Positions 2,187 to 21,623 of a stretch of DNA of 64,000 nucleotides are shown here, one piece after another. The stretch's first letter is position 1, and the number at the start of each line of letters is the position of its first letter. Source of the DNA: an uncultured delta proteobacterium (GTDB taxonomy: Bacteria > Desulfobacterota > RBG-13-43-22); contig CAWBOS010000011.1 in assembly GCA_963790475.1 (NCBI GenBank), positions 160,001 to 224,000 of the forward strand, written 5' to 3'. The notes under the pieces were generated by a model, which made no database searches, was not told where the DNA came from, and worked only from the letters and a program-made list of their open reading frames with translations. Made by a program: the position numbers and the translations under genes.

Positions 2187-2306
2187 CTATTGGGTTTGGG
2201 TCAGATACCAAGCGTAGGTATCTTTGATGCCGTTAACAAAATCTACTTTGGGAATCCAGCCTAAATCACGAATCTTCCCAATATCCAACAATTTTTGAGG
2301 GGTACC
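2187..2306 (-). pseudogene. Second, diverged 3' end of GDP-L-fucose synthase (39 aa)
   Basis: Translates [39 protein letters not shown], paralogous to the fcl tail at about 2579-2698. Confidence 0.85.
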
Positions 2307-2578
2307 GTGTAATCCGGGACATCGGTTATAAGTTGCATAACTCGTACTTGGCGCCTTGGTTAGGAGAAAGCTTGAACCGCTAAGGCGCTAAGGGCGCGAA
2401 GGGGGCGCTAAGTTAGCCTGCGGATTCTGATCTGATTATGATAAAGAACTTTTTGGCACGGATTACACGGATGGACACGGCTACTCTCTGTCATTTCTCA
2501 ATAAAACGGGTACTCGTTTTATTGAGACCGGCTGTCCGCCAAGGGGCGGAGACAGAAAAAAGACTTGCAACTGCCCGT

Positions 2579-3649
2579 TCACGTGGTCTGGGAGAGATAC
2601 CAGGCATAGGTGCTTTTTATACCTTCTTCAAAATTTAATTTAGGGGTCCAGCCTAATTCTTTGAGTTTACTTATATCCAAAAGTTTTTGAGGGGTGCCAT
2701 CGGGTTTGGTGGAATCAAAGACAATTTCAGCTTCGGGATAGAACTATATCCCGGACCATTTCGGCCAATTCTTTAATGGTTTGATCTTCTCCTATTCCCA
2801 CATTGATATGATTCGCATCTTCCCAGTTTTCCATAATAAATGTACATGCATCGGCTAAATCATCCACATGAAGGAATTCGCGGCGGGCGGAGCCGGTGCC
2901 CCAAATAGTGACCTTAGGTCCGTCTTTTTGGTTCATTTGGTTTATTGGGTTTATTTTGTCATTTGATCGTGTTGAATTATTTACTGTTTGAAGTTTTCGG
3001 GAAGAGGGCCAAAAATTGCTTCGTCCCGCTGGAGGCCTTCCCAGTCACTCTGGGCAGCAAGTTTAGCCAGGTGAAATTTACGGATCAGGGCCGGGAGCAC
3101 GTGGGAACTGATCAGGTCAAAATTATCGTTCGGCCCGTAGAGATTGGTGGGCATGGCTGAAATAAAATTACAGCCATACTGTTTTCGATAAGCCTGACAG
3201 AGTTTGATTCCGGCTATTTTAGCTATGGCATAAGGTTCATTGGTCGGCTCGAGGTAATTGCCGAGAAGGTATTCCTCCCGCATGGGTTGAGGGCACTCCC
3301 GGGGATAAATGCAGGAACTGCCCAGGTAAAGGAGTTTTTTTACTTTATAGAGATGGGCGGCATGAACCACAGTGGCATGGATCATCATGTTGTCGTAGAT
3401 AAACTCGGCCGGCCGGGTGGCGTTGGCCCAGATGCCGCCCACGGTCCCGGCCACCAGGAAGACGTATTCCGGGCGGTTGGCCTTGAACCAATAGTTGACG
3501 GCCGCCTGGTCGCGCAGATCAAGTTGGTCTCGGGAGGCGGTCAGCAGGTTGGTATGGCCGGCCTTCTCCAGGACGTGGAGGATGGCCGAGCCGACAAGGC
3601 CGCGATGGCCCGCAACATAGATGCGGGCGGATTTAGGGATGGAGGTCAT
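2579..3649 (-). CDS. fcl: GDP-L-fucose synthase with two apparent 1-nt frameshifts (about 2985 and 2742)
   Basis: [14 protein letters not shown] and [11 protein letters not shown] motifs. Continues in shifted frames as [20 protein letters not shown] and [23 protein letters not shown]...SQTT*. Confidence 0.9.
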
Positions 3650-3729: not shown

Positions 3730-4815
3730 TCAATATCCTCTTCGCTTCACTTTTTCAAGATCGGATCTGACCATCATGCGGGCTAATTGATCAAACTTTA
3801 CTTTGGGTTCCCAGCCCAACTTCTTTTTAGCTTTCATCGGGTTTCCCATGAGGATATCGACCTCCGTCGGCCGATAATAAATTGGGTCAATACGAATAAT
3901 AATGTCTCCTGGTTGAAGCTGAGATCCTGTTAGTTCAAGGTTGTCGGACATAAAACTGGTAATTATGCCGACCTCTTCGACACCGGAATTCTGCCACTCG
4001 ATTTCCATCCCCAATTCACTGAAGGCTACTGAAATAAATTCCCTAACGCTGTGACTCTCTCCGGTGGCAATCACATAGTCCTCGGGTTGATTCTGCTGTA
4101 GCATGAGCCACATGGCTTCTACATATTCAGGGGCATATCCCCAATCTCTCTTGGCATCCAGATTCCCCAGGGTTAAGCAGTCCTGAAAACCCGTCCGGAT
4201 TCGGGCTGCGGCACGGGTGATCTTTCGGGTAACAAAAGTTTCACCTCGACGAGGGGATTCGTGATTAAAGAGAATCCCGTTGCAGGCGAAAATATTATAG
4301 GCTTCCCTATAATTGATCACAATCCAGTAGCCATACACCTTGGCCACACCATAAGGAGATCTTGGATAAAAAGGAGTCGTCTCCGATTGTGGTATTTCCA
4401 AGACTTTGCCGAAAAGTTCACTGGTCGAGGCCTGGTAGAAACGGGTATTCAAACCAATTTCCTTTATAGCATCCAGAAATCTCAAAGTGCCCACGGCATC
4501 CACTTCTGCCGTGTATTCTGGAACTTCAAAGGAAACCCGGACATGACTTTGGGCGGCCAGATTATAAATCTCATCAGGCTGAACCCGCTCCAAGATACGA
4601 TTCAGATTGCTGGAATCAGTCAGATCCCCATAATGGGTAAACAGTTTTTTGTCGAAAATTTCAGGATTGTTGTAGAGATGGTCAATCCGGGCGGTATTGA
4701 AGGAGCTACTCCGGCGAATAATCCCGTGGACTTCATAGCCTTTATTAAGGAGCAGTTCGGTTAAATAGGACCCGTCTTGGCCGGTGATGCCGGTGATTAG
4801 AGCAACCTTAGGCAC
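3730..4815 (-). CDS. gmd: GDP-mannose 4,6-dehydratase
   Basis: [26 protein letters not shown] and [16 protein letters not shown] motifs. Confidence 0.97.
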
Positions 4816-4922
4816 TTAGATTACCTCGGATTAGCATCAGGGGAAAGGGGGACGTTCTTTCCGAAATTGAATTTTATCTGTTCATGGTGTTTCATGAAAC
4901 TAACTTGAACCGCGAAGGTGGC

Positions 4923-5063
4923 TTAGGTCAATCGGGTGCGAAAATAGCCGATGGTCTCCTGCAGCCCTTCTTCCAACTCCACGTCAGGCCCCCAGCTCAA
5001 ATATTTTTGGGCGAGGGTAATGTCGGGTTTTCGTTGGATCGGGTCGTCCTGGGGCAGGGGCTT
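4923..5063 (-). pseudogene. 3' tail of UDP-glucuronate decarboxylase-like SDR, copy 1
   Basis: [42 protein letters not shown] is a typical UXS C-terminus. Upstream sequence is repeat-derived, not coding. Confidence 0.8.
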
Positions 5064-5234
5064 TTTTGAGCCCGGCCGTCCGCCGGGGGCGGAACTAAAA
5101 AAAAAGCAAAAGACAAAGACATTTTTGGCACGGATTACGCGGATGGACACGGTTACTACCTTTCAATTCTCAAGAAATCGGGGAAGCGATTTCTTGAGCA
5201 CTGCCGTCTGCAGGAGCGGAATATGAAATGTTCC

Positions 5235-5468
5235 TTAAGTATTAATAAGGAACGAGAGATACCTTTCAACCGATAGACCGATAACTTTCATGTTATTCCT
5301 TATGATGAATACCGGAATTTCTTTATATTTTGGGATGACGACCGGGCGTTTAGCGCCGGGGAAATGATAAACCAGATGATCGCCCTGGGTTCGAACATAG
5401 GAACAACCGGCCGCTTCAAATATTTTAACCTGCGTCCGGTAGTCGGTGGGTTTGATTCCAGACGTCAT
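5235..5468 (-). CDS. hicA: HicA-family toxin
   Basis: 77 aa, RTQGDHLVY...RPVVIP; TAATG overlap with the upstream HicB-like gene. Confidence 0.8.
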   Translation of the reverse strand: MTSGIKPTDYRTQVKIFEAAGCSYVRTQGDHLVYHFPGAKRPVVIPKYKEIPVFIIRNNMKVIGLSVERYLSFLINT

Positions 5469-6048
5469 TATATGGCGACTTCTATCGGGGTAAAACCAAC
5501 CAGCTCTTTTCTAATAGAAAAAATTCCTTGATTTTCATCGAACCCGGCCTCCTGTAGGAGGTTTCCCAACGTTCCAATCTTTTGAGCCTCTTCCAGATTG
5601 ATTAATATAACTTCCCCCAGATTCTTTTTAGCCTGATCGATCGTTTCTCCGCAGGAGGCTATATCGAGCTCCGGACAATAGGAGACATACATATTTCCTT
5701 CTTTCCATAATTCTTCCGTCAGTTTAAGCTTCATAGACCTCTCCTATTTCCTAAAATTCTTAGTCTATTATACTCCATTTAGGAACTAATGGGAAGAGAA
5801 CAGGTATTTTCTGTCTGGTCCATATGGTCGATTGGGTTCATTGAGTCCATTGAGTTGCTTGGGTTTGTCGGGTTGTTCAGATGCTCATAGCTGATAGCTC
5901 ATTGGAAAACCAGGAAACAATTTTTTGGCACGGGTCCGGCTGGGCCGGACACACGGATGGATACGGTTAGTGCTAAGCTTTTCTCCAGAAGTCAGGCAGG
6001 TGATTTCAGGAGACCGGCTGTCCGCCGGGGACGGAAAAGAGACAAATA
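5391..6048. repeat. ~660 bp near-identical duplication (other copy 7510-8167)
   Basis: Direct comparison at offset 2119; includes hicB, the 5' part of hicA and one R1 unit. Confidence 0.9.
5468..5734 (-). CDS. hicB: HicB-family antitoxin, copy 1
   Basis: YVSYCPELDIASCGETIDQAKKNL motif. Confidence 0.85.
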   Translation of the reverse strand: MKLKLTEELWKEGNMYVSYCPELDIASCGETIDQAKKNLGEVILINLEEAQKIGTLGNLLQEAGFDENQGIFSIRKELVGFTPIEVAI

Positions 6049-6251
6049 GAAAAGATAGAATCTATTCTTGGCACGGATTTCACGGATGACACGGCCAACC
6101 ACTTGGCTAATCAAGAACTCGGGGAGCCGATTTCTTGAGGACTGCCGTCCACCGCGGACGGAAAAGAGACAAATACAAAAGCTAAAGGAATTTTTTGGCA
6201 CGGATTACGCGGATGGACACGGTTACCAACTCAAACTTCTTCAGAAATCGG

Positions 6252-6650
6252 CTAATCGATTTCTGAAGACCGGTTGTCTGCCGAAGCCGGAGTTAAGACT
6301 TTTCGTTTGATATCAGCTCGTTCCCCGAAGTTGATCAATAGCCCTACCTCCAGGCCGGTGGCCTTCAAGTAATTAACCAACTGGGTCTCATGGGCCGGAT
6401 GGAGTTCTTTAACTGATTTGAGTTCCAGGATTATCCGGTCTTCCACCAGGATATCAACTAAGTATTCCCCGACGACCATGCCGTCATAAGAAACTTGGAT
6501 GGGAGTTTCCCTGAATGCCTTCAGGCCGTTCTTTTCCAGTTCGATGAGAAGAGCATTCTGGTAGACATTTTCCAGAAAGCCAAAGCCCAGGGTTTTGTGG
6601 ACCTTATAGACGCATTGGATGATCCGGCCGGTTATGTCCTGGTGTTTCAT
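6252..6650 (-). CDS. GxxExxY protein (PD-(D/E)XK-like), copy 1
   Basis: GFLENVY motif, DILVE...ELKSV, QLVNYLKATG...GLLINFG. Confidence 0.92.
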   Translation of the reverse strand: MKHQDITGRIIQCVYKVHKTLGFGFLENVYQNALLIELEKNGLKAFRETPIQVSYDGMVVGEYLVDILVEDRIILELKSVKELHPAHETQLVNYLKATGLEVGLLINFGERADIKRKVLTPASADNRSSEID

Positions 6651-6720
6651 TTTATTGACAGGCAGTAAATTAAGTTAAAGAAATTTTGGCACGGATTACG
6701 CGGATGGACACGGCCAACTG

Positions 6721-6805
6721 GGCATGGAGCATAGAGCATAGGGCATGGAGCAACAAACCGGCAGAGGGCCTCTTGGCATAGAGCATAGAGCATGGAGCAT
6801 GGAGC
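6721..6805. repeat. Heptamer tandem repeat GCAT(A/G)G(A/G)
   Basis: GGCATGGAGCATAGAGCATAGGGCATGGAGC...; similar tracts near 8933-9040, 10691-10745, 12637-12690 and 15306-15355. Confidence 0.85.
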
Positions 6806-6823
6806 AAAAAGCCAAGGGCAACA

Positions 6824-6940
6824 TCACTTGAGGGATCGTTGGAACATGGTGATCTGCCTACAAAGCCTGTCCAGTTCACTTAGAAGATTTTCCAACATTT
6901 CTTTGGACAAAAGGGATCTTCTTTCCAATAGGATCAATAT
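6824..6940 (-). pseudogene. C-terminal fragment of four-helix-bundle (23S IVS-like) protein
   Basis: ILILLERRSLLSKEMLENLLSELDRLCRQITMFQRSLK*; family assignment by recall. Confidence 0.6.
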
Positions 6941-7257
6941 CAATGTTCTTCCGATTTCATGGATAGAATTCTTTTCAGGGCGATTTGATAGACCTCCAGG
7001 TCTTCTCTCTTGTCGATAGCAATCACCCTGATAATGTTTTCAATTTCCTTATAAACAATCCTAATGCGCTTCTTGTCGGCGTATAATTTAAAATATCCTT
7101 CAAGGTTTATTCCAGCTTTGTTACCCAGAGGATTTCCGTACTTTGGATTCAGCTCCAGCTTGACAAGCTGTTTCAAAACTTGCTTTCTTACACTGCCTTC
7201 CAGCCGGTTAAAGTCTGCCTGGGCCTCCAGTGTCAGTTCAACCTTCCAGGTCGGCAC
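6940..7257 (-). CDS. RelE/ParE-family toxin
   Basis: WKVELT...GNPLG...IRIVYKE...VIAIDKRE; overlaps the upstream small gene. Confidence 0.85.
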   Translation of the reverse strand: MPTWKVELTLEAQADFNRLEGSVRKQVLKQLVKLELNPKYGNPLGNKAGINLEGYFKLYADKKRIRIVYKEIENIIRVIAIDKREDLEVYQIALKRILSMKSEEH

Positions 7258-7456
7258 GAGTCAATCCCTCAGCCTTTAATAAGTCGTCAAGATTTACTGT
7301 TGATTCACCGTCTTTGCGTTCTTCAATGATTCCGGCCAAGTAGGCGTGTTCAAGAATGTCCTTCGCTTTCTCAGTCCGTTCCCACTCATCGAAAGGTATA
7401 ATTGCCGCAGTCCTCTTGCCTTGTTGATCTGTGATAAATTGTATTTCCATTACCAA
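7238..7456 (-). CDS. Antitoxin partner of the RelE toxin
   Basis: IQFITDQQGKRTAAIIPFDEWE; small acidic protein overlapping the toxin start. Confidence 0.75.
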   Translation of the reverse strand: MVMEIQFITDQQGKRTAAIIPFDEWERTEKAKDILEHAYLAGIIEERKDGESTVNLDDLLKAEGLTRADLEG

Positions 7457-7509
7457 CCTCCATCTAATTAAACGGTGTCCTGTTTACCTCGAATTTGTAT
7501 AAAAGTTGA

Positions 7510-7587
7510 TCGAGCATAGGAACAACCGGCCGCTTCAAATATTTTAACCTGCGTCCGGTAGTCGGTGGGTTTGATTCCAGACGTCAT
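7510..7587 (-). pseudogene. Truncated hicA (first ~26 codons)
   Basis: Matches 5391-5468, then the similarity breaks off. Confidence 0.85.
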
Positions 7588-7853
7588 TATATGGCGACTT
7601 CTATCGGGGTAAAACCAACCAGCTCTTTTCTAATAGAAAAAATTCCTTGATTTTCATCGAACCCGGCCTCCTGTAGGAGGTTTCCCAACGTTCCAATCTT
7701 TTGAGCCTCTTCCAGATTGATTAATATAACTTCCCCCAGATTCTTTTTAGCCTGATCGATCGTTTCTCCGCAGGAGGCTATATCGAGCTCCGGACAATAG
7801 GAGACATACATATTTCCTTCTTTCCATAATTCTTCCGTCAGTTTAAGCTTCAT
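7587..7853 (-). CDS. hicB: HicB-family antitoxin, copy 2
   Basis: Protein identical to 5468-5734. Confidence 0.85.
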   Translation of the reverse strand: MKLKLTEELWKEGNMYVSYCPELDIASCGETIDQAKKNLGEVILINLEEAQKIGTLGNLLQEAGFDENQGIFSIRKELVGFTPIEVAI

Positions 7854-8474
7854 AGACCTCTCCTATTTCCTAAAATTCTTAGTCTATTATACTCCATTTA
7901 GGAACTAATGGGAAGAGAACAGGTATTTTCTGTCTGGTCCATATGGTCGATTGGGTTCATTGAGTCCATTGAGTTGCTTGGGTTTGTCGGGTTGTTCAGA
8001 TGCTCATAGCTGATAGCTCATTGGAAAACCAGGAAACAATTTTTTGGCACGGGTCCGGCTGGGCCGGACACACGGATGGATACGGTTAGTGCTAAGCTTT
8101 TCTCCAGAAGTCAGGCAGGTGATTTCAGGAGACCGGCTGTCCGCCGGGGACGGAAAAGAGACAAATACAAAAGCTAAAGGAATTTTTTGGCACGGATTGC
8201 ACGGATGGACACGGTTACTGCCTTTCAATTTCTCAAGAAATCGGAACTCGATTTCTTGAGGACTATACTGTCCCCGAGTACCCGGAAAAAATCTAATACA
8301 AAAGCTAATAAACATTTTAGGCACGGGTCCGCTGGGCCGGACACACGGATGGACACGGTTAATGCCAAGCTTTTCTCCAGAAATCAGGAAGCTGATTTCA
8401 GGAGACCGGCTGCCCGCCGGGAGCGGAAAAAAATGCAAAAGACAAGGGTTTCCTTTTGGCACGGATGACGCGGG

Positions 8475-8861
8475 TTACACGGTTAAAGGATCTTGGGACG
8501 GAGTTAAGACTTTTCGTTTGATATCAGCTCGTTCCCCGAAGTTGATCAATAGCCCTACCTCCAGGCCGGTGGCCTTCAAGTAATTAACCAACTGGGTCTC
8601 ATGGGCCGGATGGAGTTCTTTAACTGATTTGAGTTCCAGGATTATCCGGTCTTCCACCAGGATATCAACTAAGTATTCCCCGACGACCATGCCGTCATAA
8701 GAAACTTGGATGGGAGTTTCCCTGAATGCCTTCAGGCCGTTCTTTTCCAGTTCGATGAGAAGAGCATTCTGGTAGACATTTTCCAGAAAGCCAAAGCCCA
8801 GGGTTTTGTGGACCTTATAGACGCATTGGATGATCCGGCCGGTTATGTCCTGGTGTTTCAT
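8475..8861 (-). CDS. GxxExxY protein, copy 2
   Basis: Identical to copy 1 up to KVLTP, then a different tail SQDPLTV that ends inside an R1 copy. Confidence 0.92.
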   Translation of the reverse strand: MKHQDITGRIIQCVYKVHKTLGFGFLENVYQNALLIELEKNGLKAFRETPIQVSYDGMVVGEYLVDILVEDRIILELKSVKELHPAHETQLVNYLKATGLEVGLLINFGERADIKRKVLTPSQDPLTV

Positions 8862-9044
8862 TTTATTGACAGGCAGTAAATTAAGTTAAAGAAATTTTGG
8901 CACGGATTGCACGGATGGACACGGATACTGGGGGCATAGAGCATAGAGTATAGGGCTAACAAACCGGCAGAGGGCCTATTGGCAAAGAGCATGGAGCAGA
9001 GGGCCTATTGGCATAGGGCAGAGAGCATAGGGCAAAGAGCAAAA

Positions 9045-9140
9045 TCATTTAAGGGACCGTTGGAACATGGTGATCTGTCTGCAAAGCCTGTCCAGTTCAG
9101 TTAGAAGATTTTCAGACTTCCAGTTATTCAATATTTTTGG
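9045..9140 (-). pseudogene. Second C-terminal fragment of four-helix-bundle protein
   Basis: ENLLTELDRLCRQITMFQRSLK*, homologous to 6824-6890. Confidence 0.6.
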
Positions 9141-9555
9141 CCCTATCGGACAATCCCCCACTAAACGGGGTTTGATTCTCCCATCTCCCGGCCTCTTCGA
9201 TAACTTCCCGGATTGAAGGTTTTTCAGAGGCAACCACCTTTGTTTGTGTATGCTTGTGGTGGGGAAATGTTTCAAATTCTGCGAAATGAGGTGTGTTATC
9301 ATAACGAAATAAAGTATGATTATCTAAATTCTGAAAATGATATCGATAACCCAAGGGGGATATTGATTCCTCGATCACGACAACCGCCTCGCTTATCTCT
9401 ATCGTTGCCCCACTCTTAAAGCGGATCCGTAAACGAAGGTTAATCCTCTTTGAACTTAAAACCTCCTCCTCATATCTTTCAACATAAACACCTGCCAAAC
9501 GAGAAACAACATCCTCAATCTCCCTCAAATATTGTTTAAGAGAATCATGCAGCAT
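9124..9555 (-). CDS. DUF6516/TumE-like putative toxin
   Basis: YRYHFQ...FRYDNTPH...FPHHKH motif; the last ~20 aa look like read-through into foreign DNA. Confidence 0.7.
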   Translation of the reverse strand: MLHDSLKQYLREIEDVVSRLAGVYVERYEEEVLSSKRINLRLRIRFKSGATIEISEAVVVIEESISPLGYRYHFQNLDNHTLFRYDNTPHFAEFETFPHHKHTQTKVVASEKPSIREVIEEAGRWENQTPFSGGLSDRAKNIE

Positions 9556-9775
9556 GCTGTAGCCGCTCTTCTATCTCCCCGCGCATTGCCAAGTAATGCT
9601 GATAGTCATTTGACCACTCAACAAATTTTTCGGAATCCTCCAGATTCCCCTTGGTGTATTGATCAAAGAAATCCTCGGAATCCATTCCATATCCACTTTC
9701 AAATATCGCTAGACGCTTTGCCAATGCCACTAGCGCATCGACTCCCGTACTGTATTGGATGGTCTTTTTTTTCAT
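9545..9775 (-). CDS. TumA-like antitoxin
   Basis: FESGYGMDSEDFFDQYTKGNLEDSEKFVEW; overlaps the toxin start. Confidence 0.65.
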   Translation of the reverse strand: MKKKTIQYSTGVDALVALAKRLAIFESGYGMDSEDFFDQYTKGNLEDSEKFVEWSNDYQHYLAMRGEIEERLQHAA

Positions 9776-9966
9776 GTCCCCGATCTTTCTTTTAAAATTT
9801 ATTCAATTTTCCCTATCCTAATAAATTGTAGATCAGTTCTCCTGAAAGGTCAAAGGGAAAAGCGGCTGGGCACGGTCACCTGGCAGAAAAGGGGGACGTT
9901 CATTCCGAAATTGGATTGTATATGTTCATGGTGTTTCATGAAACTAACTTGAACCGCGAAGGTGGC

Positions 9967-10104
9967 TTAGGTCAATCGGGTGCGAAAATAGCCGATGGTC
10001 TCCTGCCCTTCTTCCAACTCCACGTCAGGCCCCCAGCTCAAATATTTTTGGGCGAGGGTAATGTCAGGTTTTCGTTGGATCGGGGCGTCCTGGGGCAGGG
10101 GCTT
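9967..10104 (-). pseudogene. 3' tail of UDP-glucuronate decarboxylase-like SDR, copy 2
   Basis: Near-identical to 4923-5063 (one codon deleted, D to A). The flank 9890-10196 matches 4846-5156. Confidence 0.8.
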
Positions 10105-10222
10105 TTTTGAGCCCGGCCGTCCGCCGGGGGCGGAACTAAAAAAAAAGCAAAAGACAAAAACATTTTTGGCACGGATTACGCGGATGGACACGGTTACCAA
10201 CTCAAACTTCTTCAGAAATCGG

Positions 10223-10621
10223 CTAATCGATTTCTGAAGACCGGTTGTCTGCCGAAGCCAGAGTTAAGACTTTTCGTTTGATATCAGCTCGTTCCCCGAA
10301 GTTGATCAATAGCCCTACCTCCAGGCCGGTGGCCTTCAAGTAATTAACCAACTGGGCCTCATGGGCCGGATGGAGTTCTTTAACTGATTTGAGTTCCAGG
10401 ATTATCCGGTCTTCCACCAGGATATCAACTAAGTATTCCCCGACGACCATGCCGTCATAAGAAACTTGGATGGGAGTTTCCCTGAATGCCTTCAGGCCGT
10501 TCTTTTCCAGTTCGATGAGAAGAGCATTCTGGTAGACATTTTCCAGAAAGCCAAAGCCCAGGATTTTGTGGACCTTATAGACGCATTGGATAATCCGGCC
10601 GGTTATGTCCTGGTGTTTCAT
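10223..10621 (-). CDS. GxxExxY protein, copy 3
   Basis: Three amino-acid differences from copy 1. Confidence 0.92.
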   Translation of the reverse strand: MKHQDITGRIIQCVYKVHKILGFGFLENVYQNALLIELEKNGLKAFRETPIQVSYDGMVVGEYLVDILVEDRIILELKSVKELHPAHEAQLVNYLKATGLEVGLLINFGERADIKRKVLTLASADNRSSEID

Positions 10622-10935
10622 TTTATTGACAGGCAGTAAATTAAGTTAAAGAAATTTTGGCACGGATTGCACGGATGGACACGGCCAATCGGCATAGAGC
10701 AAAGGGCATAGAGCATAAAGTATAGGGCTAACAAACCGGCATAGGGTTTCTCAAGAACTCGGGGAGCCGATTTCTTGAGCCCGGCGATCCTCCGGGGGCG
10801 GAACAAAAAAAATGCAAAAGACAAGAGCTTATTTTTGGCACGGGTCCGGATGGCCGGACACGCGGATGGACACGGTTAACCACTGGGTCACTTTTGTCAG
10901 TGGGCGGAGCCTCTGATCCTCGGGACGGCGGCCAG

Positions 10936-11163
10936 TTAAACCCCCACTTTTTCTTTTAACCAGTCGTTGATCAAACTGTCTTCATTGATCCGTAATTTTT
11001 TGGCCTGTTTTTTAATTATTTCATACAATCCATTCTCAATTCCTACATACTTCTTCTTTTTTAATTTAAATCGAAGCCCTTTTACTTCCTCAGTATCTGG
11101 AAATTCAGTAAAATCATGGCGGTCCCAAAATTCCGAGGCCTGATCTATTGACATGTTCTCCAT
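10936..11163 (-). CDS. BrnA/CopG-like antitoxin
   Basis: SIDQASEFWDRHDFTEF motif and RHH-like C-terminus. Confidence 0.7.
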   Translation of the reverse strand: MENMSIDQASEFWDRHDFTEFPDTEEVKGLRFKLKKKKYVGIENGLYEIIKKQAKKLRINEDSLINDWLKEKVGV

Positions 11164-11167
11164 TTTT

Positions 11168-11227
11168 TTACTTTTTTGCATATCTTTTTCTTTCATTTTT
11201 GTTCATATCCCTGGCGGTCACAATCAA
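11168..11227 (-). pseudogene. C-terminal remnant of BrnT-family toxin
   Basis: LIVTARDMNKNERKRYAKK*, fused directly to a partial R1 at 11228-11248. Confidence 0.7.
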
Positions 11228-11495
11228 GATTACACGGATTGCACGGTTCTTTCAAAATTAAGGCTGTCTCTCGCCCGCTTCCTTCGTTCGCTCAAGCGCG
11301 CAGAGGGCGCAGAGCGGGACCTTTTATCTTGGCCTGAATCTTTGAGAAGGAGATTCCGGCAAGCCGGCTCAGCCTTCGGCGGCTAACCGGGTTAAGATAA
11401 AAAAACCTTTTGGCACGGATTACACGGATAGACACGGTTAACCACTTGGGTAATCAAGAACTCGGGGAGCCGATTTCTTGAGGACTGCTGTCAAG

Positions 11496-11870
11496 TCAAG
11501 TCCGCATGCTGACACTTCCGGGTTGCGGCTTCCGGACACGAAATTTCGTACTCAAGGCAATAACAATCGCTCCGGATTCCAAATCCCGGCTATGCCGATC
11601 CATGACATCACGCAAAAGCTTTATTCTCTCAAAGCGCGGCAAGTTTTCCAAACGTAGGACACCACAATGAGGCTCACCTTGTCGCCATATCATTTCCTCG
11701 AAATCGTTATCTGTCGTAATAATAATCCGGTGTTCCTTTATGGCCCAATTCAAAATCTCATTGTCACTCATCTTGGGGTCCTTCTGACCGACTTCGACTA
11801 TGTCATGCCCCTGGTGAATCAACCATTGAGCCACAACCCCACTTGCGTTAACATCCAACAAGAAGTTCAT
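11496..11870 (-). CDS. DUF5615 PIN-like (VapC45-type) toxin
   Basis: MNFLLDVN...SDNEIL...IIITTDNDF motif. Confidence 0.85.
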   Translation of the reverse strand: MNFLLDVNASGVVAQWLIHQGHDIVEVGQKDPKMSDNEILNWAIKEHRIIITTDNDFEEMIWRQGEPHCGVLRLENLPRFERIKLLRDVMDRHSRDLESGAIVIALSTKFRVRKPQPGSVSMRT

Positions 11871-11875
11871 GAAGA

Positions 11876-12115
11876 TTAGCCAACTGCGACACGATCAAAA
11901 ACATCTTCTCGGGCAACCATATGATGCGCATAGAGCAAAACAGCACGGAAATCATCCGGCTCCAGTTGGGGATAGTCTTGAAGGATCTCTTCTTGTGTAG
12001 CTCCTTTGGCCAATAGCTCCAACACCATTTCGACAGATATCCTCAGACCTCGAATAAGAGGTTTTCCACAAAGAACCTCCTTATTAAAGGTGATACGATT
12101 TAATAGATCCTGCAT
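11876..12115 (-). CDS. DUF433 antitoxin
   Basis: RITFNKEVLCGKPLIRGLRISVEMVLELLAKGATQEEILQDYPQL; start at ATG 12115 after a GGGAGG RBS. Confidence 0.9.
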   Translation of the reverse strand: MQDLLNRITFNKEVLCGKPLIRGLRISVEMVLELLAKGATQEEILQDYPQLEPDDFRAVLLYAHHMVAREDVFDRVAVG

Positions 12116-12391
12116 TGTTGCCCTCCCAAAATATTTATTATTTGAAAGTTTATAGGGGTACAACCAAATTGTCAAGGAAGGCTTCTTTTTGTCACGGGTC
12201 CGGATGGGCCGGACACTAGGATGGACACGATTAATCACTCAGACTTCTACAGAAATCGGCTAATCGATTTCTGTAGACCACGTTCTTCATTCTGTTCAGT
12301 TATTCTGTTCGTCTGTGCGGTCTATTTGGTTTGTTTCGTCAGGGCCTAAGTCAAAGACAATCATATTGAATCGGGAGATGGTCGTCAAAAA

Positions 12392-12541
12392 TCAGGCCCA
12401 AGCAGTCAATCGGGTGCGAAAATAGTCGATGGTCTCCTGCAGCCCTTCTTCCAACTCTACGCCAGGCCACCAATTTAAATATTTTTGGGCCAGGGTAATG
12501 TCGGGTTTTCGTTGGATCGGGTCGTCCTGGGGCAGGGGCTT
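12392..12541 (-). pseudogene. 3' tail of UDP-glucuronate decarboxylase-like SDR, copy 3 (diverged)
   Basis: [49 protein letters not shown]; same 5' breakpoint as the other two copies. Confidence 0.8.
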
Positions 12542-12900
12542 TTTTGAGCCCGGCCGTCCGCCGGGGGCGGAACTAAAAAAAAAGCAAAAGACAAAGACAT
12601 TTTTGGCACGGATTGCACGGATGGACACGGCCAATCGGCATAGAGCAAAGGGCATAGAGCATAGAGTATAGGGCTAACATACCGGCATAGGGTTTCTCAA
12701 GAACTCGGGGAGCCGATTTCTTGAGCCCGGCGATCCTCCGGGGGCGGAAAAGAGGCAAATACAAAAGCTAAAGGAATTTTTTGGCACGGATTGCACGGAT
12801 GGACACGGTTAAAGGCCCTTGAGTTTCTTCTGAAATCGGGCTTCCGATTTCAGAAGAAAAATCCCCCTCCTGGCGGAGGAACGCAATAAAAGGATTTTCT

Positions 12901-13110
12901 TTAAGCGTAGGCCAGCTTTCCTTTGGGTTCCGGGGTTTCTCTCCCCAATTCCTGAGCTGTTTTAAGCCATTCGGGAATTACTCCCTGGGCATTTTCTACT
13001 GCTTCCCCGTAGGTTTTTCCATCGGCCATACACCCGGGAAGCTCAGGAACTTCCACAATAAAGCACCCATCCTCAGCGCTCCAATAAACAACCAGTTCGT
13101 ACTTAAACAT
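12901..13110 (-). CDS. hicB: HicB-family antitoxin
   Basis: YWSAEDGCFIVEVPELPGCMADGKTYGEAV motif. Confidence 0.9.
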   Translation of the reverse strand: MFKYELVVYWSAEDGCFIVEVPELPGCMADGKTYGEAVENAQGVIPEWLKTAQELGRETPEPKGKLAYA

Positions 13111-13364
13111 CTATGACCTCACTGTGAATTTTATATTGGAGAATGATCTTTCTAATTTGTTTGACCTGATAAGCCTTTGCCTTGCCGTCCCTCAAAGGTT
13201 GGAGGTTAATGATCTCGGGAATTCCGCTTCGATAAAAGATATAAAGGTCACCATTTATTCTCTCGAAGAATCCCAAACCGGTCAAGAGCCTTCTGATATC
13301 ATTTAAATCGTATGTTGTTATCGGCTAACCCGGAGAGAACGCTGTTCAATAGTTTTGTTTCCAT
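13103..13364 (-). pseudogene. HicA-family toxin, frameshifted near 13302, conserved His absent
   Basis: METKLLNSVLSGLADNNIRF / DIRRLLTGLGFFERINGDLYIF...AKAYQVKQIR. Confidence 0.75.
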
Positions 13365-13952
13365 CAATCCTACCTTAATATTTTAGGCTACTGGATTGGG
13401 ATAGGTACCAATTATAAGTGTTTTTGATCCCTTCTGCAAAACTTATTTTCGGCTATCCTTGTCCCTGTGGGTTTGGGGTCAAATCTTTATGCTTACATTT
13501 GCTTAGCGTCATAGGAAGGGACGCTCGTTCTGAACGTGCTTGAACCAGGGACAGGTCTATTTTCTTGGCATTGAATGATCTTAGCTCATAGCTCATTACT
13601 GATAGATCATTGGAAAAACAGGAAACAATACTCAAAGGTCTGTTCGGTCTATCTGGTCTATTTGGTTTGTTGGGTCTGTTTGGTCAGTTAAAAGACTGCA
13701 AAGATAAGCGCTTCTTTTTGGCACGGATTACACGGATTTCACGGTTCTTTCAAAATCAAAACTTTCTCTCGCCCGCTTCCTTCGGTCGCTCAAGCGCGCA
13801 GAGGGCGCTGAGAGGGGCGGGGTTTTCTTTTTCATTGCGGTTGAGAGGGACCGCAATGAAAAGCAAGCTCGGCCTGCGGCATTTTCCAGTCAGTTTTGTC
13901 TGTTTGGTTGATCTGGCTTGTTTTGGTCTAAACGAACCAGGATATGGAATAA

Positions 13953-14088
13953 TTATTTCCTGGATTTTGCTTTCTTATATATTCCCTCCCGTGAACCAAT
14001 AACCGTAACCGTTATCGTCCTCCCCTCAATGCAATAGACAATTCTATATTCCGGCCGTCGTCCAAAATGATAAGAGATATCCCTCCAT
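13953..14088 (-). pseudogene. C-terminal half of RelE-family toxin
   Basis: SYHFGRRPEYRIVYCIEGRTITVTVIGSREGIYKKAKSRK*, directly after the DUF2281-like gene. Confidence 0.7.
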
Positions 14089-14092
14089 GGAG

Positions 14093-14308
14093 TTATCGAT
14101 ATTCCTTCTGCAACTCTGCCAGACTTATAAATTTTTTCCCGGCTTTTCTATCCTCGCCGGCCTCCCGGCCTCTTTGGTTGACATAGCGGATGAACCACTC
14201 ATCCTCTTTAAGCTTTAAATATTCGACAAAATCGAAAACCTCTTTAATCTTCTTCTCCGGGAGGTCCTGGATATCATTTATAAGCTTTTGTTTTAAAGAA
14301 TAAGCCAT
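14093..14308 (-). CDS. DUF2281-like antitoxin
   Basis: IQDLPEKKIKEVFDFVEYLK motif. Confidence 0.75.
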   Translation of the reverse strand: MAYSLKQKLINDIQDLPEKKIKEVFDFVEYLKLKEDEWFIRYVNQRGREAGEDRKAGKKFISLAELQKEYR

Positions 14309-14702
14309 GGCTTATCTCTCCTTAGTTTTTCTTCTAATTTATCATATTCTTTTTAATTTTTCCAGTTGTCCATTTCATTCAGTTATTGTCTCTCCTGCCC
14401 TATCTCGTCTGGTTGGCATAGGGCAAAGGGCGATCTAATCTGTTTGGTCTATCTGGTTTGTTGGGTTGCTTTGGTTTATTGGGTTTATTGGGTTTGTCGG
14501 CTTGTTCATAAGTTCATAACTGATAGCTGTGAATAGCTCATAGCTGATAGCTCATAGCGTAAAAGTCAAATGTTTTTTGGCACGGATTACGCAGATGGAC
14601 ACGGTTTAATTCTGGTCTGGTCTGTTTGGTCGATTAGGTTCATTGGGTTTGTTGGGTTTGTCGGGTTGTTCCGGGGAAAGACGGCATGGTCGGGGGTGAA
14701 CC

Positions 14703-14912
14703 TTAGGCTGCTTGGAGTTTTTTATCCATCTGTTTAATGACGTCTTTAAATAGTTGGGAGGCTTGAAAAACCTCAACCCCGATCAGGTTACCGGCCTTGT
14801 CTAATTCCATATTTACGTTCGGACTAAGCTCCACTACTTCCTCTTCCTGTCCTTCCCTGCCCAGATACAAGATATCCTCTCGATCATCATAAAAAACCTT
14901 AAATCCTTCCAT
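14703..14912 (-). CDS. DUF2283 antitoxin-like protein
   Basis: VFYDDREDILYL...ELDKAGNLIGVEVFQAS motif. Confidence 0.85.
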   Translation of the reverse strand: MEGFKVFYDDREDILYLGREGQEEEVVELSPNVNMELDKAGNLIGVEVFQASQLFKDVIKQMDKKLQAA

Positions 14913-15189
14913 TACAGACTCCTCCATCTACCGCTGGTTATCCTCTTCCCTTTTTGCCCTTCTTTTAAGGGATGAATGGTTATAATTTTAATCCAGCTTT
15001 CTTCTTCTTTATAAGCTATCATAATTTCCCTTTACCATAAAGTTCTTCCGAGGCCACGGCAACATGATGCCCGCTCAAAATATCCAGATACTTTTCTTTT
15101 GAACTTTCAAAAACTTTTCGGGGAAGGTTTTTATCTATTTTCCTTAAAACCAGTCTGTTTTCAAGGTGTTTAGAATATCTTATTTCCAT
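14912..15189 (-). pseudogene. DUF4258/RelE-like toxin with frameshift near 15030
   Basis: MEIRYSKHLENRLVLRKI... / EIMIAYKEEESWIKIITIHPLKEGQ...SGRWRSL*; TAATG overlap with the DUF2283 gene. Confidence 0.6.
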
Positions 15190-15443
15190 TTTTTGTACGG
15201 CGCTTCAAAAATATGGTTTAGGGTCAAATCTTTATCCTTTGCATTTGCTCAGCGTCACAGGAAGGGACGTTCGGTCTGAACGTGGTCTATTCAGTCTGTT
15301 TCGTCGCATAGGGCAGAGAGCATAGATCAAAGGGCACAGGGCATAGAGCATAGGGCCAACAAACCGGCATTGGGGTTATCAAGAATCGAGCAATCGATTT
15401 CTTGTGGACTGATGTCCGCCGGGGGCGGAACAAAAAGAAAGGG

Positions 15444-15620
15444 TTATAATAGTGAGAGAAATTCTTCTCGTGACAATCCTGCCTGCTCCAGAATTGCCCT
15501 TAAGGTTCCTTTCGGTAATACTTTTCTACTTCCCTTACCTCTTTTGGGGGCATCCAGGAAGCCTCCTTTTCGTAAAGCCTGAATGACCTCCCTTGAAGAA
15601 AGGGATGGCATTCTGGTCAT
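15444..15620 (-). pseudogene. HicA-family toxin with in-frame internal deletion (58 aa)
   Basis: MTRMPSLSSREVIQALRKGGF...RGKGS|RKVLPKGTLRAILEQAGLSREEFLSLL*; the GSH His and following strands are missing. Confidence 0.75.
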
Positions 15621-15856
15621 TAAACAACAGCCTCCAAATGAGCCGTAAATTTTTCTTTAGTTGTCAGGCTTTCTTCGATATCCTCAATCAGATCGAGTTC
15701 TTTGGCGTTGTCCAGATATAATTCCACCGCTTCTTTTAAATTATTGACCGCCTCTTCAAACGTATCCCCACAACTGGCCACCCCTAGTTCAGGACACTTG
15801 GAAACAAACCCTTCCGTCTCTTTCCAGACGACGGCTGTATATTCAAAAATTTTCAT
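15620..15856 (-). CDS. hicB: HicB-family antitoxin
   Basis: FVSKCPELGVASCGDTFEEAVNNLKEAVELYL motif. Confidence 0.9.
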   Translation of the reverse strand: MKIFEYTAVVWKETEGFVSKCPELGVASCGDTFEEAVNNLKEAVELYLDNAKELDLIEDIEESLTTKEKFTAHLEAVV

Positions 15857-16282
15857 AGGGATTCCTTTTACCTATTAATTGGGGTTGTTGGATTTGTTTT
15901 GTTTGATCAATGTTTTTTATATTCAAGATAAAGTCACATAACTAATTATAATAACATAGATTGAGTCTGGTTTCAAGTGTTCCTTTGTTGAGGCTGTTCG
16001 GTCAATCTAGTCTATTTGGTCTGTTTAGTCTGTATGGTCTATAGGGTTCCTTGGGTCCATTGGGTTTGTTGGGTTTGTTGGGTTGTTCAGAAGCTCAAAG
16101 CTGATAGCTGGATTTAGCTCATAGTGCAAAGTCGATAGCGCACAGGAAAAATCAAAGAAGCGGAAAGGTTTCTTTTTGGCACGGATGACATGGATAGCAC
16201 GGTTCTTTCAAAATCAAAACTTTCTCTCGCCCGCTTCCTTCCGTCGCTCAAGCGCGCGGAGGGCGCAGAGAGGACCCATTCT

Positions 16283-16413
16283 CAGACCTTTGAAAAAGTC
16301 TCCTATTACGTCATACCGGCGAAAGCCGGTATCCAGAACCAATTAAAAACACTGGATTCCGTGTCAAGCACGGAATGACGAAAAGGAAGTTGGCATAATA
16401 ATTCAAAGGTCTC
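16283..16413. mobile_element. MITE carrying a CGTC-type REP-like palindrome pair
   Basis: TIR (C/G)AGACCTTTGAA and flanking ATTCT duplication; a related empty site exists near 11310-11345. Confidence 0.75.
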
Positions 16414-16877
16414 ATTCTCTTGGCCTGAATCTTTGAAAAGAAGATTCAAACCAACCGGCTCAGCCTTCGGCGGCTAACCGGGTTAAGATAAAAAAACCTT
16501 TTGGCACGAATGAGTTTAGCTCATAGCTCAAAGCTGATAGGCTCATTGGAAAAGTCAGAAAAGCTTAACGACTTTTTTGGCACGGATTTCACGGATGGAC
16601 ACGGTTAACCTCTGGTCTGTTTGGTGATTTGGTCTATCTGGTCTGCCGGGTCTATTCGGAAGCTCATTGCTGATAGCTCAAAGCTCATAGAAAAACCAGG
16701 GCTTCAGGGCAAGCTACCGCTCCTTCGATTCCGGGAAAGTAAGACCGGTCGATATGGAAGCTCATAGCAAGATAGCTCATAACAAGAAACAGGATTCAAG
16801 GATTCAAGGGGTCGAGGATTCAAGATCACAGAAAAACAGAATCCCCATTCATCTTGTTCAACTCACAGTGAAACCGA

Positions 16878-18315
16878 TCAAACGGCGCCTAAACCTCTTA
16901 AAGCCGCAGGAATAGTCAATACCAGAATCTTGAGATCCAGCCAGAATGACCACTGATCAATATATTGCATATCCATTTTCATCCACTCGGAAAAAGAGAC
17001 ACTGCAGCGGCCGTTGATCTGCCAGAGGCATGTCATTCCGGGTCGGACGCTGAAGCGGCGGCGCTGTCAGTCCTGGTCGAAACCGTTGTAATCTCGAACG
17101 GGCAGGGGTCTCGGGCCGACCAGGCTCATCTCCCCCTTCAGCACGTTGATCAACTGGGGCAGTTCGTCGATACTGGTTTTCCGTAAAAATTTCCCGATGC
17201 CTGTGATCCGGGGATCGTCCTTGATCTTGAAGGCCGGCCCGTCTACCTCGTTCAATGTTTCCAGGGCCGCGATCCTGGCCTCCGCGTCGGCCACCATGGT
17301 CCGGAATTTATAGAGCCGGAAGATCCTCTTGTGGAGCCCGACCCGGTCCTGGACGAAAAAAACAGGCCCCGGGCGAGGTCAGTTTGATCAACAGGGCTGC
17401 AGCCAGGAAAAACGGCGAGAGCACAATCAGCAGGAGCAGAGAGCCGATGAAATCCAGCATATACTTAACCACCACGGGAGTCCCCTCCATCCGCCCGGTG
17501 GAGACGGTGATAAAAGCATCCTCCTCGTTCTCTTCCGGCCGGACCCGGCCCAGTTTCAGGTTGAAGAAGTCCGAAGGGAAGCGGACCAGGATGCCCTGCT
17601 TTTCGCAGTCGGACACGATCTGAGAGATCTGCTGGTAATAGGACTTGATGGGCAGGCAGATGACCACTTCGTCGATAACCGCGGTGCGGAGCAGGGCCGG
17701 CAGGCTGTTGAAGTCGGCCACCAGGTGGTGGCCCGATTTCTCGAAACCCTTCATCCCGGGGCCTTCGTCCACAAAGCCCATGATCCGGTAACCGAACTCC
17801 GGGGTATTCAAAACCTTGTCCACAAAGCGCAGGGCCCGGGAACTGGTGCCGACGAGAAGTATATTTCGCAGGTTCCGTCCCCGGTTCCTGATCTTTTTCA
17901 GCCCGTACTTCAGTATAAGGCGAGCGGCAATGGTCCCCAGGGCAGAGGACCCCCAGAAAACGTCCAGGAAGAGACCGTTGATCAGCCGTATATTGAAGAA
18001 GATTGAGGCGAGCAGCAACACCAAGGTCCCGAGGCTGACGGCCTTGAAGATCTGCCGCATATCTTCCTGACGGGTTGTGAGCCGACGGGAATGGTAGAGC
18101 TTGAAAAAAGAGAAAAGGCCGTGCCAGACCAGAAGGAAGGCCACGCAGATCAGCAGGTTCGAAGCCTTGATCCGCATGGCCAGGACCCGTTCAAAGGAGA
18201 CCCCCTTCATCTCCTGGGAGGTGACCCAGGTGGCGAAAAGGAAATAGCCGGCCAAGGCTGCCAGGTCAAACAGCTTGAGAGCTTTTAAAAGGATTTTACG
18301 GCGGAATGTGCCCAT
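16878..18315 (-). CDS. Priming polyprenyl-phosphate glycosylphosphotransferase (WcaJ/CpsE-like), frameshift near 17370 and in-frame TGA at 17067-17069
   Basis: [43 protein letters not shown] and [14 protein letters not shown] motifs. Confidence 0.9.
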
Positions 18316-21092: not shown

Positions 21093-21319
21093 GGGAACTC
21101 CTTAAATAGGGGTCTTCTCCCAGTTAATTTCCTTTTAAATAAACCCCCGGATTTGCCAGGGGATACCCAAAGTTTGACAATTCCGGGAGCAGGATTGGAC
21201 AATATTCAATAAAGGAGTATTCATTATTTTTCCAATACCCCGTCAGAGATATTTTTCAAAAATGAATTAACCTCTGGATTGTCATTCCGGCGAAAGCCGG
21301 AATCCGATATGGCTGACAG

Positions 21320-21620
21320 TTGTCAAGAGGAAAAGATTTTTCCTGGCCCTAGTAGAGGGTTAGACTGTCAGTTTAATCCAGGGCACAAGCAGAGACGGGA
21401 CCGATTTAGCGACGTTTGATCATTCTGATATTCGCGTATTTTGAACGCCTGACTTGACTTCGTCACAGGAGCTGCCTCGCTCTAGGATCGGAAATTCGGA
21501 TGACCTTATTCCTTGGATTCCTCGAGGATTCTCCCAACGGGGTCGCGTCTCTGCTGGTCCCCTGGATAGGATATAATGGGTGGTCTCTATACTCCTTTAA
21601 GAAGGTTTGTTTTTTGACCT
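21320..21620 (-). ncRNA. Putative bridge/seek RNA region
   Basis: ~300 bp non-coding region downstream of the transposase, with 8-nt matches to the target site (21514-21521) and the circle junction (21424-21431). Confidence 0.6.
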
Positions 21621-21623
21621 AGG

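Follow-up and report, generated by a model that had tools for sequence, protein, structure and literature searches.

A spacer of ~12 kb in a polysaccharide operon of an uncultured delta proteobacterium, lying between the genes for a priming sugar-phosphate transferase and GDP-mannose 4,6-dehydratase (gmd), holds a one-directional array of half-elements, each a hairpin followed by a short repeat that we term R1, which punctuates toxin-antitoxin (TA) cassettes. This arrangement is what is new here. The array occupies positions 4846-16870 of a 64,000 nt stretch of DNA (the window; contig CAWBOS010000011.1, hereafter C11, positions 160,001-224,000), and positions are those of the window unless marked C11. 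It contains 10 TA modules, three genes of the GxxExxY family, orphan gene ends and 21 copies of R1. R1 is best read as one arm type of hairpin cassettes resembling the intervening sequences (IVSs) of 23S rRNA. The reading we favor, at a probability of about 55%, is that R1 is a one-sided arm of such cassettes and that the array is a sink for selfish genes grown by homology between co-oriented arms. The observation is real and is partly explained, as a variant of a poorly known class of elements.

A first-pass annotation of this DNA had described about 21 co-oriented R1 copies punctuating about ten TA modules, three GxxExxY genes and orphan gene tails, and our recount agrees with it. A search of the whole window with a 33-mer of R1, allowing up to 3 mismatches, gave 13 matches, all on the - strand, where shuffled sequences lead one to expect 0.00; 12 fall inside the array and one outside it. 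A looser pattern scan combined with reading brought the number within the array to 21, every one on the - strand. Sixteen of these are plain copies, one of which, with 3 mismatches, was counted from the 33-mer search, and five carry a 17-nt GC hairpin inserted between box 2 and box 3. One truncated remnant near 11225-11250 is extra to the 21. R1 itself consists of three direct boxes and possesses no internal symmetry. On the coding strand, the array unit runs from a GC hairpin (M2) through a second hairpin of 28-30 nt (M1) and a spacer of ~12 nt to R1, followed by a run of A, often by heptamer or nonamer runs, by a promoter-like site and then by the next module. Within the array R1 seldom stands without its hairpin modules. 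The stem letters of M1 vary among copies with pairing kept, both sides of the stem changing as judged by reading. Promoter-like sites number 29 in the array compared with 17.1 +/- 4.3 in shuffled sequences, and several are located directly upstream of module starts. All array genes of interest lie on the same strand as the R1 copies.

The identification of R1 as a cassette arm draws on elements that carry it at both ends. Elements of 120-190 bp that carry no gene and are bounded by an inverted pair of R1 copies occur in Xylanibacter ruminicola, in two relatives and once in the source genome, where the sole complete element (C11:137958-138136) lies 22 kb beyond the window start. Terminal inverted repeats of the kind found in miniature inverted-repeat transposable elements (MITEs) are present in all of these, while the 21 array copies are half elements. 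The gene-less elements of the relatives hold the same inner modules as the window, namely the first hairpin, M2 and M1, which indicates that the array units are right halves of such elements. Four X. ruminicola copies were compared at their flanks, and no single target duplication is common to them. Among the listed copies of five R1-rich genomes, R1 ends spaced 1-3 kb apart with an open reading frame (ORF) between them, as expected of an autonomous element, were not found.

A related design surrounds small genes across the phylum. Of 151 genomes sampled, 49 have GxxExxY genes, and at 30 loci the gene typically lies between about three 7-10-mers upstream and their reverse complement downstream, the word differing from element to element. 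An inverted match of at least 14/16 between the 150-nt flanks was present at 13 of 26 loci (one locus from the window's own genome and three with short flanks having been dropped from the 30), compared with 1/26 and 3/26 for mismatched flank pairs. The four-helix-bundle genes of the source genome gave 6/10 against 0/10 for mismatched pairs. By reading, one heptad theme recurs with variations in the GxxExxY arms of the phylum, and R1-like words serve as arms at 5 of the 30 loci (L130, L137, L140, L141 and L145). R1 arms were not seen at five four-helix-bundle genes of genomes G041-G045, which have arms of other sequence. No PF05635 match was found on the array's contig, and tandem-repeat arms were not seen at TA modules elsewhere in the genome (two HicB homologues on contig C12). 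Of the two families that mark an ORF of IVS-like cassettes, PF13366 and PF05635, the array contains the former in its three GxxExxY genes, which lie between direct rather than inverted R1 copies. Elsewhere in the source genome (contig C6, 181-239 kb), five PF05635 genes are found within 58 kb, each between its own inverted tandem-repeat arms.

Beyond the source genome, R1 is a dispersed intergenic repeat of other genomes and phyla, and the earlier view of R1 as a dedicated site of the array and of polysaccharide loci does not hold. R1 is present in 9 of 20 related genomes of the family, belonging to three genera, and in none of the 20 genomes sampled from the phylum's other families. In contigs representing one genome per species, a 28-nt R1 pattern has 100 exact matches in 95 stretches from several phyla. 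The holders are mostly Bacteroidales (Prevotella, Bacteroides, Xylanibacter), together with Thermodesulfobacteriota-type metagenome-assembled genomes (MAGs), a Roseiflexus MAG and MAGs of Brocadiia and Phycisphaerae (Planctomycetota). Five R1-rich genomes carry 22, 43, 9, 57 and 20 copies on both strands of many contigs; a reversed control pattern gave 0. Long ORFs exclude 83 of the 100 matches, which often lie a few bases ahead of housekeeping gene starts. Relative to their neighbors, 33 are oriented same/same, 17 opposite/opposite, 9 convergent and 8 divergent, representing a bias and not a rule. In one genome of the same genus, an R1-TA array is located among housekeeping genes and not beside the transferase homologue, so a polysaccharide setting is not required. 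The 28-nt word, which is non-coding, is common to distant phyla.

Several side observations concern these R1 copies. At six loci of relatives (L018, L051, L060, L089, L095 and L093), a conserved outward promoter-like stretch is found downstream of R1, before unrelated housekeeping genes, and such elements may consequently act as mobile promoters. A fragment of a group II intron domain (RF02003, 60.7 bits) lies inside an R1-TA array of a same-genus genome (G009, L011 820-967). In the Roseiflexus MAG (L112-L114), a four-heptad R1 word occurs both as hairpins and as same-direction tandems with periods of ~45 and 88 nt. The R1 strings do not occur in the literature searched. Candidate identities for R1 were also considered and set aside. 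As a known RNA family, it gave only a chance long non-coding RNA match in an array search at E up to 1. As an antisense sigma-54 promoter, its box spacing is, by reading, two bases short of the consensus and its strand is antisense to the genes. A bidirectional terminator, CsrA-type GGA sites and DnaA boxes were judged against consensus sequences only, the terminator having its A-run on the wrong side.

Self-comparison of the array yields direct repeats only, with no inverted repeats of at least 70 nt. The large direct duplications span 351-706 nt at ~93-98% identity (Table 1). Their ends fall within HicA, the GxxExxY 3' end, hairpins and heptamer runs and coincide only sometimes with an R1 edge, so that homologous or illegitimate recombination fits better than site-specific capture. 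In another MAG, a 1.14-kb unit of GxxExxY, hairpin and R1 is repeated three times in tandem ahead of gmd. These tandem units, combined with the direct duplications, bear the marks of unequal recombination among co-oriented repeats and not of exchange at one site. Together, the repeats point to homology-driven growth of the array. The three GxxExxY genes are mutually 97-100% identical and, being recent duplicates, represent one association with R1, not three.

What we observed is the anatomy of the array, its confinement to a single locus, how widely R1 is distributed, the arms that flank GxxExxY loci, the duplications and the differing content of relatives; from these we infer an order of events and a recombination route. 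The 12-kb spacer would be a tolerated dumping ground for small selfish genes within a polysaccharide operon, and R1 would be an arm, on the 3' side, of very small hairpin cassettes that form a widespread class. A cassette in full form would carry a GxxExxY or four-helix-bundle gene with an arm on either side, the two arms being inverted relative to each other and made of three to six 7-10-mers in tandem; the gene-less form would be a MITE-like hairpin of 120-190 bp. The array would hold right halves only (M2, M1 of variable sequence and R1), pointing with the operon and alternating with promoter-bearing TA modules. A few cassettes and TA modules would initially have entered the spacer. Their co-oriented repeat modules could then have provided homology for unequal crossing-over, slippage and gene conversion, duplicating blocks, cutting genes and leaving orphan gene ends behind. 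Inverted partners would give inversions or long RNA stems and may hence have been dropped.

The position after the transferase is occupied in relatives as well. Close orthologues of the priming transferase (72-75% amino acid identity) occur in four relatives, all from other genera of the family, and the best same-genus match reaches 46%, indicating that the transferase locus probably moved horizontally. In each of the four, the orthologous gene is immediately followed by TA modules, and the contigs break 2-7 kb further on. The modules are AbrB/PIN, CopG, DUF433/DUF5615 and RHH/RelE in G014, Phd/PIN, RHH/RelE and DUF5615 in G020, DUF433/DUF5615 in G018 and HicBA in G017. Judged by these loci, the spacer is a conserved hot spot that relatives fill differently, and the content is not invariant, in agreement with the first-pass annotation.

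Several observations weigh against the favored reading. The one-way orientation of 21/21 copies and the total absence of 5'-side arms are accounted for by argument only, and the recombination route is a matter of inference, the public contigs being of low depth. In the 6.34-Mb source genome, all 15 strict R1 matches are found on C11 within 39 kb, and under looser patterns all convincing copies lie inside C11:137,958-176,604. M1, M2 and one other hairpin repeat likewise occur nowhere outside this stretch, while heptamer and nonamer runs occur genome-wide. R1 is thus not scattered through its own genome, which agrees with the first-pass annotation. Confinement of R1, M1 and M2 to one locus is unexpected for a passive dispersed repeat and leaves room for a locus-bound process. 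The repeat is also retained behind the same cassettes in different genomes. In three genomes, representing two genera, the DUF433/DUF5615 cassette is followed by a hairpin with R1 or with the last R1 box, and the HicB...M1-R1 order is kept between G000 and G017; the repeat would in this respect travel with cassettes as an attC site does. Finally, exact array-type R1 in metagenomes, with 56 copies on 51 contigs, adjoins TA-type genes far above chance, and all four multi-copy contigs are co-oriented. Among 61 distinct neighboring ORFs of at least 55 amino acids, of which one may match several Pfam families, TA-type and GxxExxY matches comprise PIN (3), PDDEXK_3 (3), DUF5615 (2), TumE (2), UPF0150/HicB (2) and MqsA (2), with one each for TacA1, HEPN, DUF2281 and YafQ. 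Polysaccharide or envelope families are represented by DegT (2), DUF218 (2) and Epimerase (1). Many of the 51 contigs may derive from related populations. Within the R1-bearing stretch of the source genome, C11:141-145 kb holds more copies of R1 together with another hairpin repeat in 11 copies.

These observations keep in play an unlikely alternative, namely a true cassette-capture system that has no integrase and in which hairpin and R1 are the site of recombination. Its unit would be one or more genes with a 3' hairpin-R1, comparable to a gene with its attC, and an enzyme yet to be named, possibly the GxxExxY nuclease acting on heptad arms, would move single units. The co-oriented array with a repeat at almost every module boundary, the differing content behind the same transferase and the trailing of the same cassette by hairpin and R1 in different genomes all agree with capture, as do the metagenome neighborhoods, the nuclease fold and intact catalytic set of GxxExxY and the heptad theme of its arms. 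The distribution of R1 ahead of housekeeping genes on both strands elsewhere, the R1-rich genomes that lack a PF13366 match and the position of most duplication ends argue against it. Moreover, the cassettes have diverged as their flanks have: the DUF433/DUF5615 cassette shares 84% nucleotide identity with those of G014 and G020, compared with 79-81% for the transferase, and homology is confined to the ORFs. The modules also bear promoter-like sites of their own, the GxxExxY trio arose by recent duplication, and neither the low-depth short-read contigs nor the duplication ends gave evidence of site-specific exchange at the level of junctions. Of the mechanism first proposed, in which R1 was the recombination site of a system capturing and shuffling cassettes, co-orientation and variable content thus stand and the role of R1 as a dedicated site is weakened by its dispersal and by the duplication ends.

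The same annotation had noted that no integrase or reverse transcriptase lies in the window. A search of the whole genome with TIGR02249 gave 25 tyrosine-recombinase matches, none of them inside the window and the best at 105 bits compared with a cut-off of 265, so no integron integrase was found in the genome, and no reverse transcriptase match falls inside the window. The window is nevertheless not free of recombinases, since an IS110-family transposase (DEDD_Tnp_IS110 and Transposase_20; ORF 21624-22736, - strand) is present in an element at 21281-22839. This element, of which the genome has 3 copies at identities of at least 99.7%, sits 4.7 kb upstream of the array; the other two copies are at loci without R1.

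GxxExxY had been put forward as a predicted PD-(D/E)XK family and as the candidate enzyme. The first point is borne out by matches to PF13366 and TIGR04256, an intact catalytic set and a nuclease fold in the predicted model. Residues E27, D66, E76 and K78 are invariant in an alignment of 26 sequences, and the predicted model of copy 1 has a pLDDT (predicted local distance difference test) of 91.2. The solved folds closest to it are Cas4 (4ic1, E 2e-4, template-modeling score 0.54 on the query), alkaline exonuclease and the archaeal Holliday-junction resolvase Hjc; a sequence search of solved structures gave one chance match only. Given the invariant catalytic residues and the confident nuclease-like model, GxxExxY is plausibly an active small nuclease. 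As an enzyme acting on R1 it is a lead, not a finding. Three of the five R1-rich genomes have no PF13366 match, and three GxxExxY genes of the source genome outside the array have no R1 nearby, so GxxExxY is not needed for the presence of R1. Co-localization of the two is seen in part, near the metagenome copies and in arms across the phylum. No paper on GxxExxY function was found in the literature searched, where the family accession terms are rare.

More doubtful than capture alone is a further proposal in which hairpin and R1 would be the working site of an integrase-less system, GxxExxY, as a small nuclease specific for structure or sequence, nicking the heptad arms that its cassettes share with variations in many phyla, and the resulting breaks driving homing into operon spacers as well as capture and reshuffling of TA genes. 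If true, this would constitute a second, integron-independent route to gene-cassette arrays, and the 28-nt arm, nearly the same in Bacteroidales, Chloroflexota, Planctomycetota and Thermodesulfobacteriota, would be a sign of spread between phyla. R1, its hairpin-insert variant and full versus half elements offer substrates for tests of the GxxExxY nuclease.

A role at the RNA level, to which we likewise assign a low probability, would have the hairpin-R1 modules kept as processing or stabilizing signals that part selfish modules from polysaccharide genes, like the IVS ends cut by RNase III, whose excision of the Coxiella intervening sequence has been demonstrated (PMC4990558). Every copy lies on the transcribed strand, M1 pairing survives changes on both sides of its stem, the arms of full cassettes could pair, and elements in the wider set are more often sense between co-directional genes. 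However, the co-oriented R1 copies of the array make mutual pairing impossible, and Rfam at its gathering threshold matches nothing on the window or on 20 R1-bearing loci. By reading, the inter-heptad spacers of the paired Roseiflexus arms are not complementary between arms, which suggests conserved words more than conserved stems. An RNA-level role is compatible with either a selfish-gene sink or a capture system.

That the array is an artefact of assembling a repeat-rich region from long metagenome reads is highly improbable: at least one homopolymer error (base 17367), a genome contamination estimate of 9.68 and near-identical duplications of 0.35-0.7 kb in the region would fit it, but short-read contigs cover most of the array and comparable arrays exist in independent assemblies. 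The reads examined are low-depth short-read contigs from three metagenome runs of one study, in which a stretch without contig cover is not evidence. In the best run (X1), 46 of 75 contig pieces match the array at identities of at least 99% and 28 of 30 bins are covered. The joints between repeat modules are few and of depth 2-3.1, from which cassette order is not confirmable. In the priming transferase frame, a frameshift is apparent near 17367. The short-read contigs leave out base 17367 (4.08 of 4.08 depth), so this frameshift is a homopolymer error of the assembly, whose other frameshifts call for caution. An in-frame TGA at 17067-17069, where relatives have tryptophan, lies inside a 326-nt short-read contig with 0 differences and is real in that sample.

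Among known systems, the ORF-bearing IVSs of 23S rRNA in Coxiella and Leptospira hold an S23p/four-helix-bundle gene between terminal inverted repeats, are horizontally transferred and have a mobility that is unexplained (PMC4990558). The likeness is that of selfish elements of small size in which a single small ORF lies between inverted ends, and both PF05635 and PF13366 genes are found between inverted arms in the source genome and the phylum. The array differs by its location in a protein-coding operon, by arms made of tandem 7-10-mers, by having one arm type, all direct, so that no enclosing stem is possible, and by the filling of most units with TA modules instead of S23p genes.

Integron arrays and clusters of attC sites lacking integron-integrases (CALINs) include TA-rich chromosomal arrays, and a CALIN may lack IntI. 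Their attC sites are imperfect inverted repeats with paired outer and inner boxes. The array shares with them co-oriented small modules on one strand, many of them TA, boundary repeats and content that varies between relatives, with different TA sets in four of these. In contrast, no IntI was found in the array's genome, and by inspection R1 is not an imperfect palindrome of the attC type but a set of three direct boxes. The promoter-like sites of individual modules, the genome-wide dispersal of R1 in other species and the lack of evident site-specific junctions in the duplications set it further apart. MITEs, Correia elements, REPINs (repetitive extragenic palindrome doublets forming hairpins) and bacterial interspersed mosaic elements (BIMEs) are short intergenic repeats with inverted ends. 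Like these, R1 elements are short, gene-less, intergenic and mosaic, with inverted ends, internal hairpins and up to dozens of copies per genome. Unlike them, no partner transposase was found for R1, its end sequence is common to several phyla, and in the source genome the copies occupy one locus in one orientation. The genome-wide dispersal typical of repetitive extragenic palindromic sequences and BIMEs is accordingly absent there, R1, M1 and M2 occurring only at C11:135-180 kb.

The TA array is now linked to tiny hairpin cassettes that are common in genomes and nearly absent from the literature searched. A hot spot for selfish genes in a surface-polysaccharide operon may affect the expression and exchange of that locus.

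The TA families found in the array by Pfam are HicA, HicB-like, RelB-like, TumE, CopG antitoxin, DUF433/DUF5615, DUF2281 and DUF2283. At least one partner is supported by Pfam in 9 of the 10 TA-like modules, the tenth being a duplicate of another, and several seem truncated. From sequence alone, these are adjacent small genes of toxin and antitoxin families as in type II TA systems. Among the orphan gene ends, the final 44 codons of a short-chain dehydrogenase/reductase (SDR) dehydratase are present three times, with the full paralogue (68% identity) on another contig. For a second, duplicated frame end, tblastn matched only its two array copies. A four-helix-bundle gene tail is not supported for this pair, as there was no Pfam match and no BLASTP match to two four-helix-bundle proteins.

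Table 1. Genes, R1 copies and duplications in and around the array.
Feature	Position	Strand	Evidence
Priming sugar-phosphate transferase, CoA_binding_3 + Bac_transf; upstream border	16878-18315	-	Pfam
HicB-like (15620-15856) + shortened HicA (15444-15620)	15444-15856	-	HicB_lk_antitox E 6e-6; HicA_toxin E 1.8e-6, two stretches
DUF2283 gene (14703-14927) + upstream small ORF (15019-15189)	14703-15189	-	DUF2283 E 5.8e-12; partner ORF without family match
DUF2281-type antitoxin, then broken toxin-like frame	14093-14308	-	DUF2281 E 7.5e-6; toxin fragment by reading only
HicB-like antitoxin (12901-13110) + upstream unassigned ORF (13103-13285)	12901-13285	-	HicB_lk_antitox E 1.8e-8
SDR sugar-nucleotide dehydratase orphan end, copy 3	12392-12547	-	tblastn, 92% to copy 1
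DUF433 (11876-12127) / DUF5615 (11496-11870)	11496-12127	-	Pfam E 7e-22, 6.5e-22
Solo CopG-type antitoxin	10936-11196	-	CopG_antitoxin E 5e-11
GxxExxY copy 3	10223-10621	-	98% amino acid identity to copy 1
SDR orphan end, copy 2	9967-10110	-	tblastn
TumE toxin (9124-9555) + upstream small partner ORF (9545-9775)	9124-9775	-	TumE E 9e-21; partner without match
Orphan frame end, parent not identified, copy 2	9048-9113	-	Matches its sister copy only; no Pfam match
GxxExxY copy 2; 3' end runs straight into R1	8475-8861	-	tblastn
706-nt duplicate (98.4%) of 5391-6094: HicB-like (7587-7853), cut HicA, repeat modules	7510-8214	-	self-BLAST
RelB-like antitoxin (7238-7456) + overlapping 105-aa toxin-like ORF (6940-7257)	6940-7456	-	RelB-like E 9.6e-7; toxin-like ORF without family match
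Orphan frame end, parent not identified, copy 1	6827-6937	-	Duplicate of 9048-9113
GxxExxY copy 1, predicted small PD-(D/E)XK nuclease	6252-6650	-	PF13366 E 5e-43; TIGR04256 E 1e-42
HicB-like (5468-5734) / HicA (5235-5468)	5235-5734	-	HicA_toxin E 9.7e-9; HicB-like weak, E 0.24
SDR orphan end, copy 1	4923-5069	-	68% identity to residues 266-309 of 310-aa SDR paralogue
gmd (GDP-mannose 4,6-dehydratase); downstream border	3730-4815	-	Pfam GDP_Man_Dehyd E 2.6e-152
R1 plain	16575-16607	-	33-mer search + looser scan
R1 degenerate, M6 module ahead (16224-16255)	16174-16204	-	Looser scan
R1 plain, 3 mismatches	14575-14607	-	33-mer search
R1 variant, M6 module ahead (13766-13797)	13716-13746	-	Looser scan
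R1 plain, hairpin ahead (12827-12856)	12779-12811	-	33-mer search + looser scan
R1 plain	12601-12633	-	33-mer search + looser scan
R1 with hairpin insert	12187-12230	-	Looser scan
R1 plain, M1 hairpin ahead (11454-11481)	11408-11440	-	33-mer search + looser scan
R1 with hairpin insert	10833-10875	-	Looser scan
R1 plain, ends 33 nt upstream of GxxExxY copy 3 start codon	10655-10687	-	33-mer search
R1 plain, hairpin ahead (10210-10239)	10164-10196	-	33-mer search + looser scan
R1 plain, upstream of GxxExxY copy 2	8895-8927	-	33-mer search
R1 variant	8454-8484	-	Looser scan
R1 with hairpin insert	8316-8358	-	Looser scan
R1 plain	8185-8217	-	33-mer search + looser scan
R1 with hairpin insert	8042-8085	-	Looser scan
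R1 plain, upstream of GxxExxY copy 1	6684-6716	-	33-mer search
R1 plain, hairpin ahead (6239-6268)	6193-6225	-	33-mer search + looser scan
R1 degenerate	6066-6096	-	Looser scan
R1 with hairpin insert	5923-5966	-	Looser scan
R1 plain, M1 hairpin ahead (5169-5198)	5123-5155	-	33-mer search + looser scan
R1, outside array, between fcl-like gene end and orphan second copy of that end (2190-2300)	2451-2483	-	33-mer search
Duplication, 98.4%	5391-6094 = 7510-8214		self-BLAST
Duplication, 94.8%	6131-6746 = 10103-10716		self-BLAST
Duplication, 92.8%	6288-6892 = 8499-9113		self-BLAST
Duplication, 94.0%	4844-5194 = 9888-10235		self-BLAST

Beyond gmd, nonamer repeats of ~90 nt interrupt an fcl-like epimerase gene (2190-3649) after residue 222. 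The final 37 codons of this gene are present twice, at 2582-2692 and again as the orphan copy (69% amino acid identity), with an M2-hairpin-R1 module between them, and the orphan copy is adjoined by a short inverted R1-like fragment.

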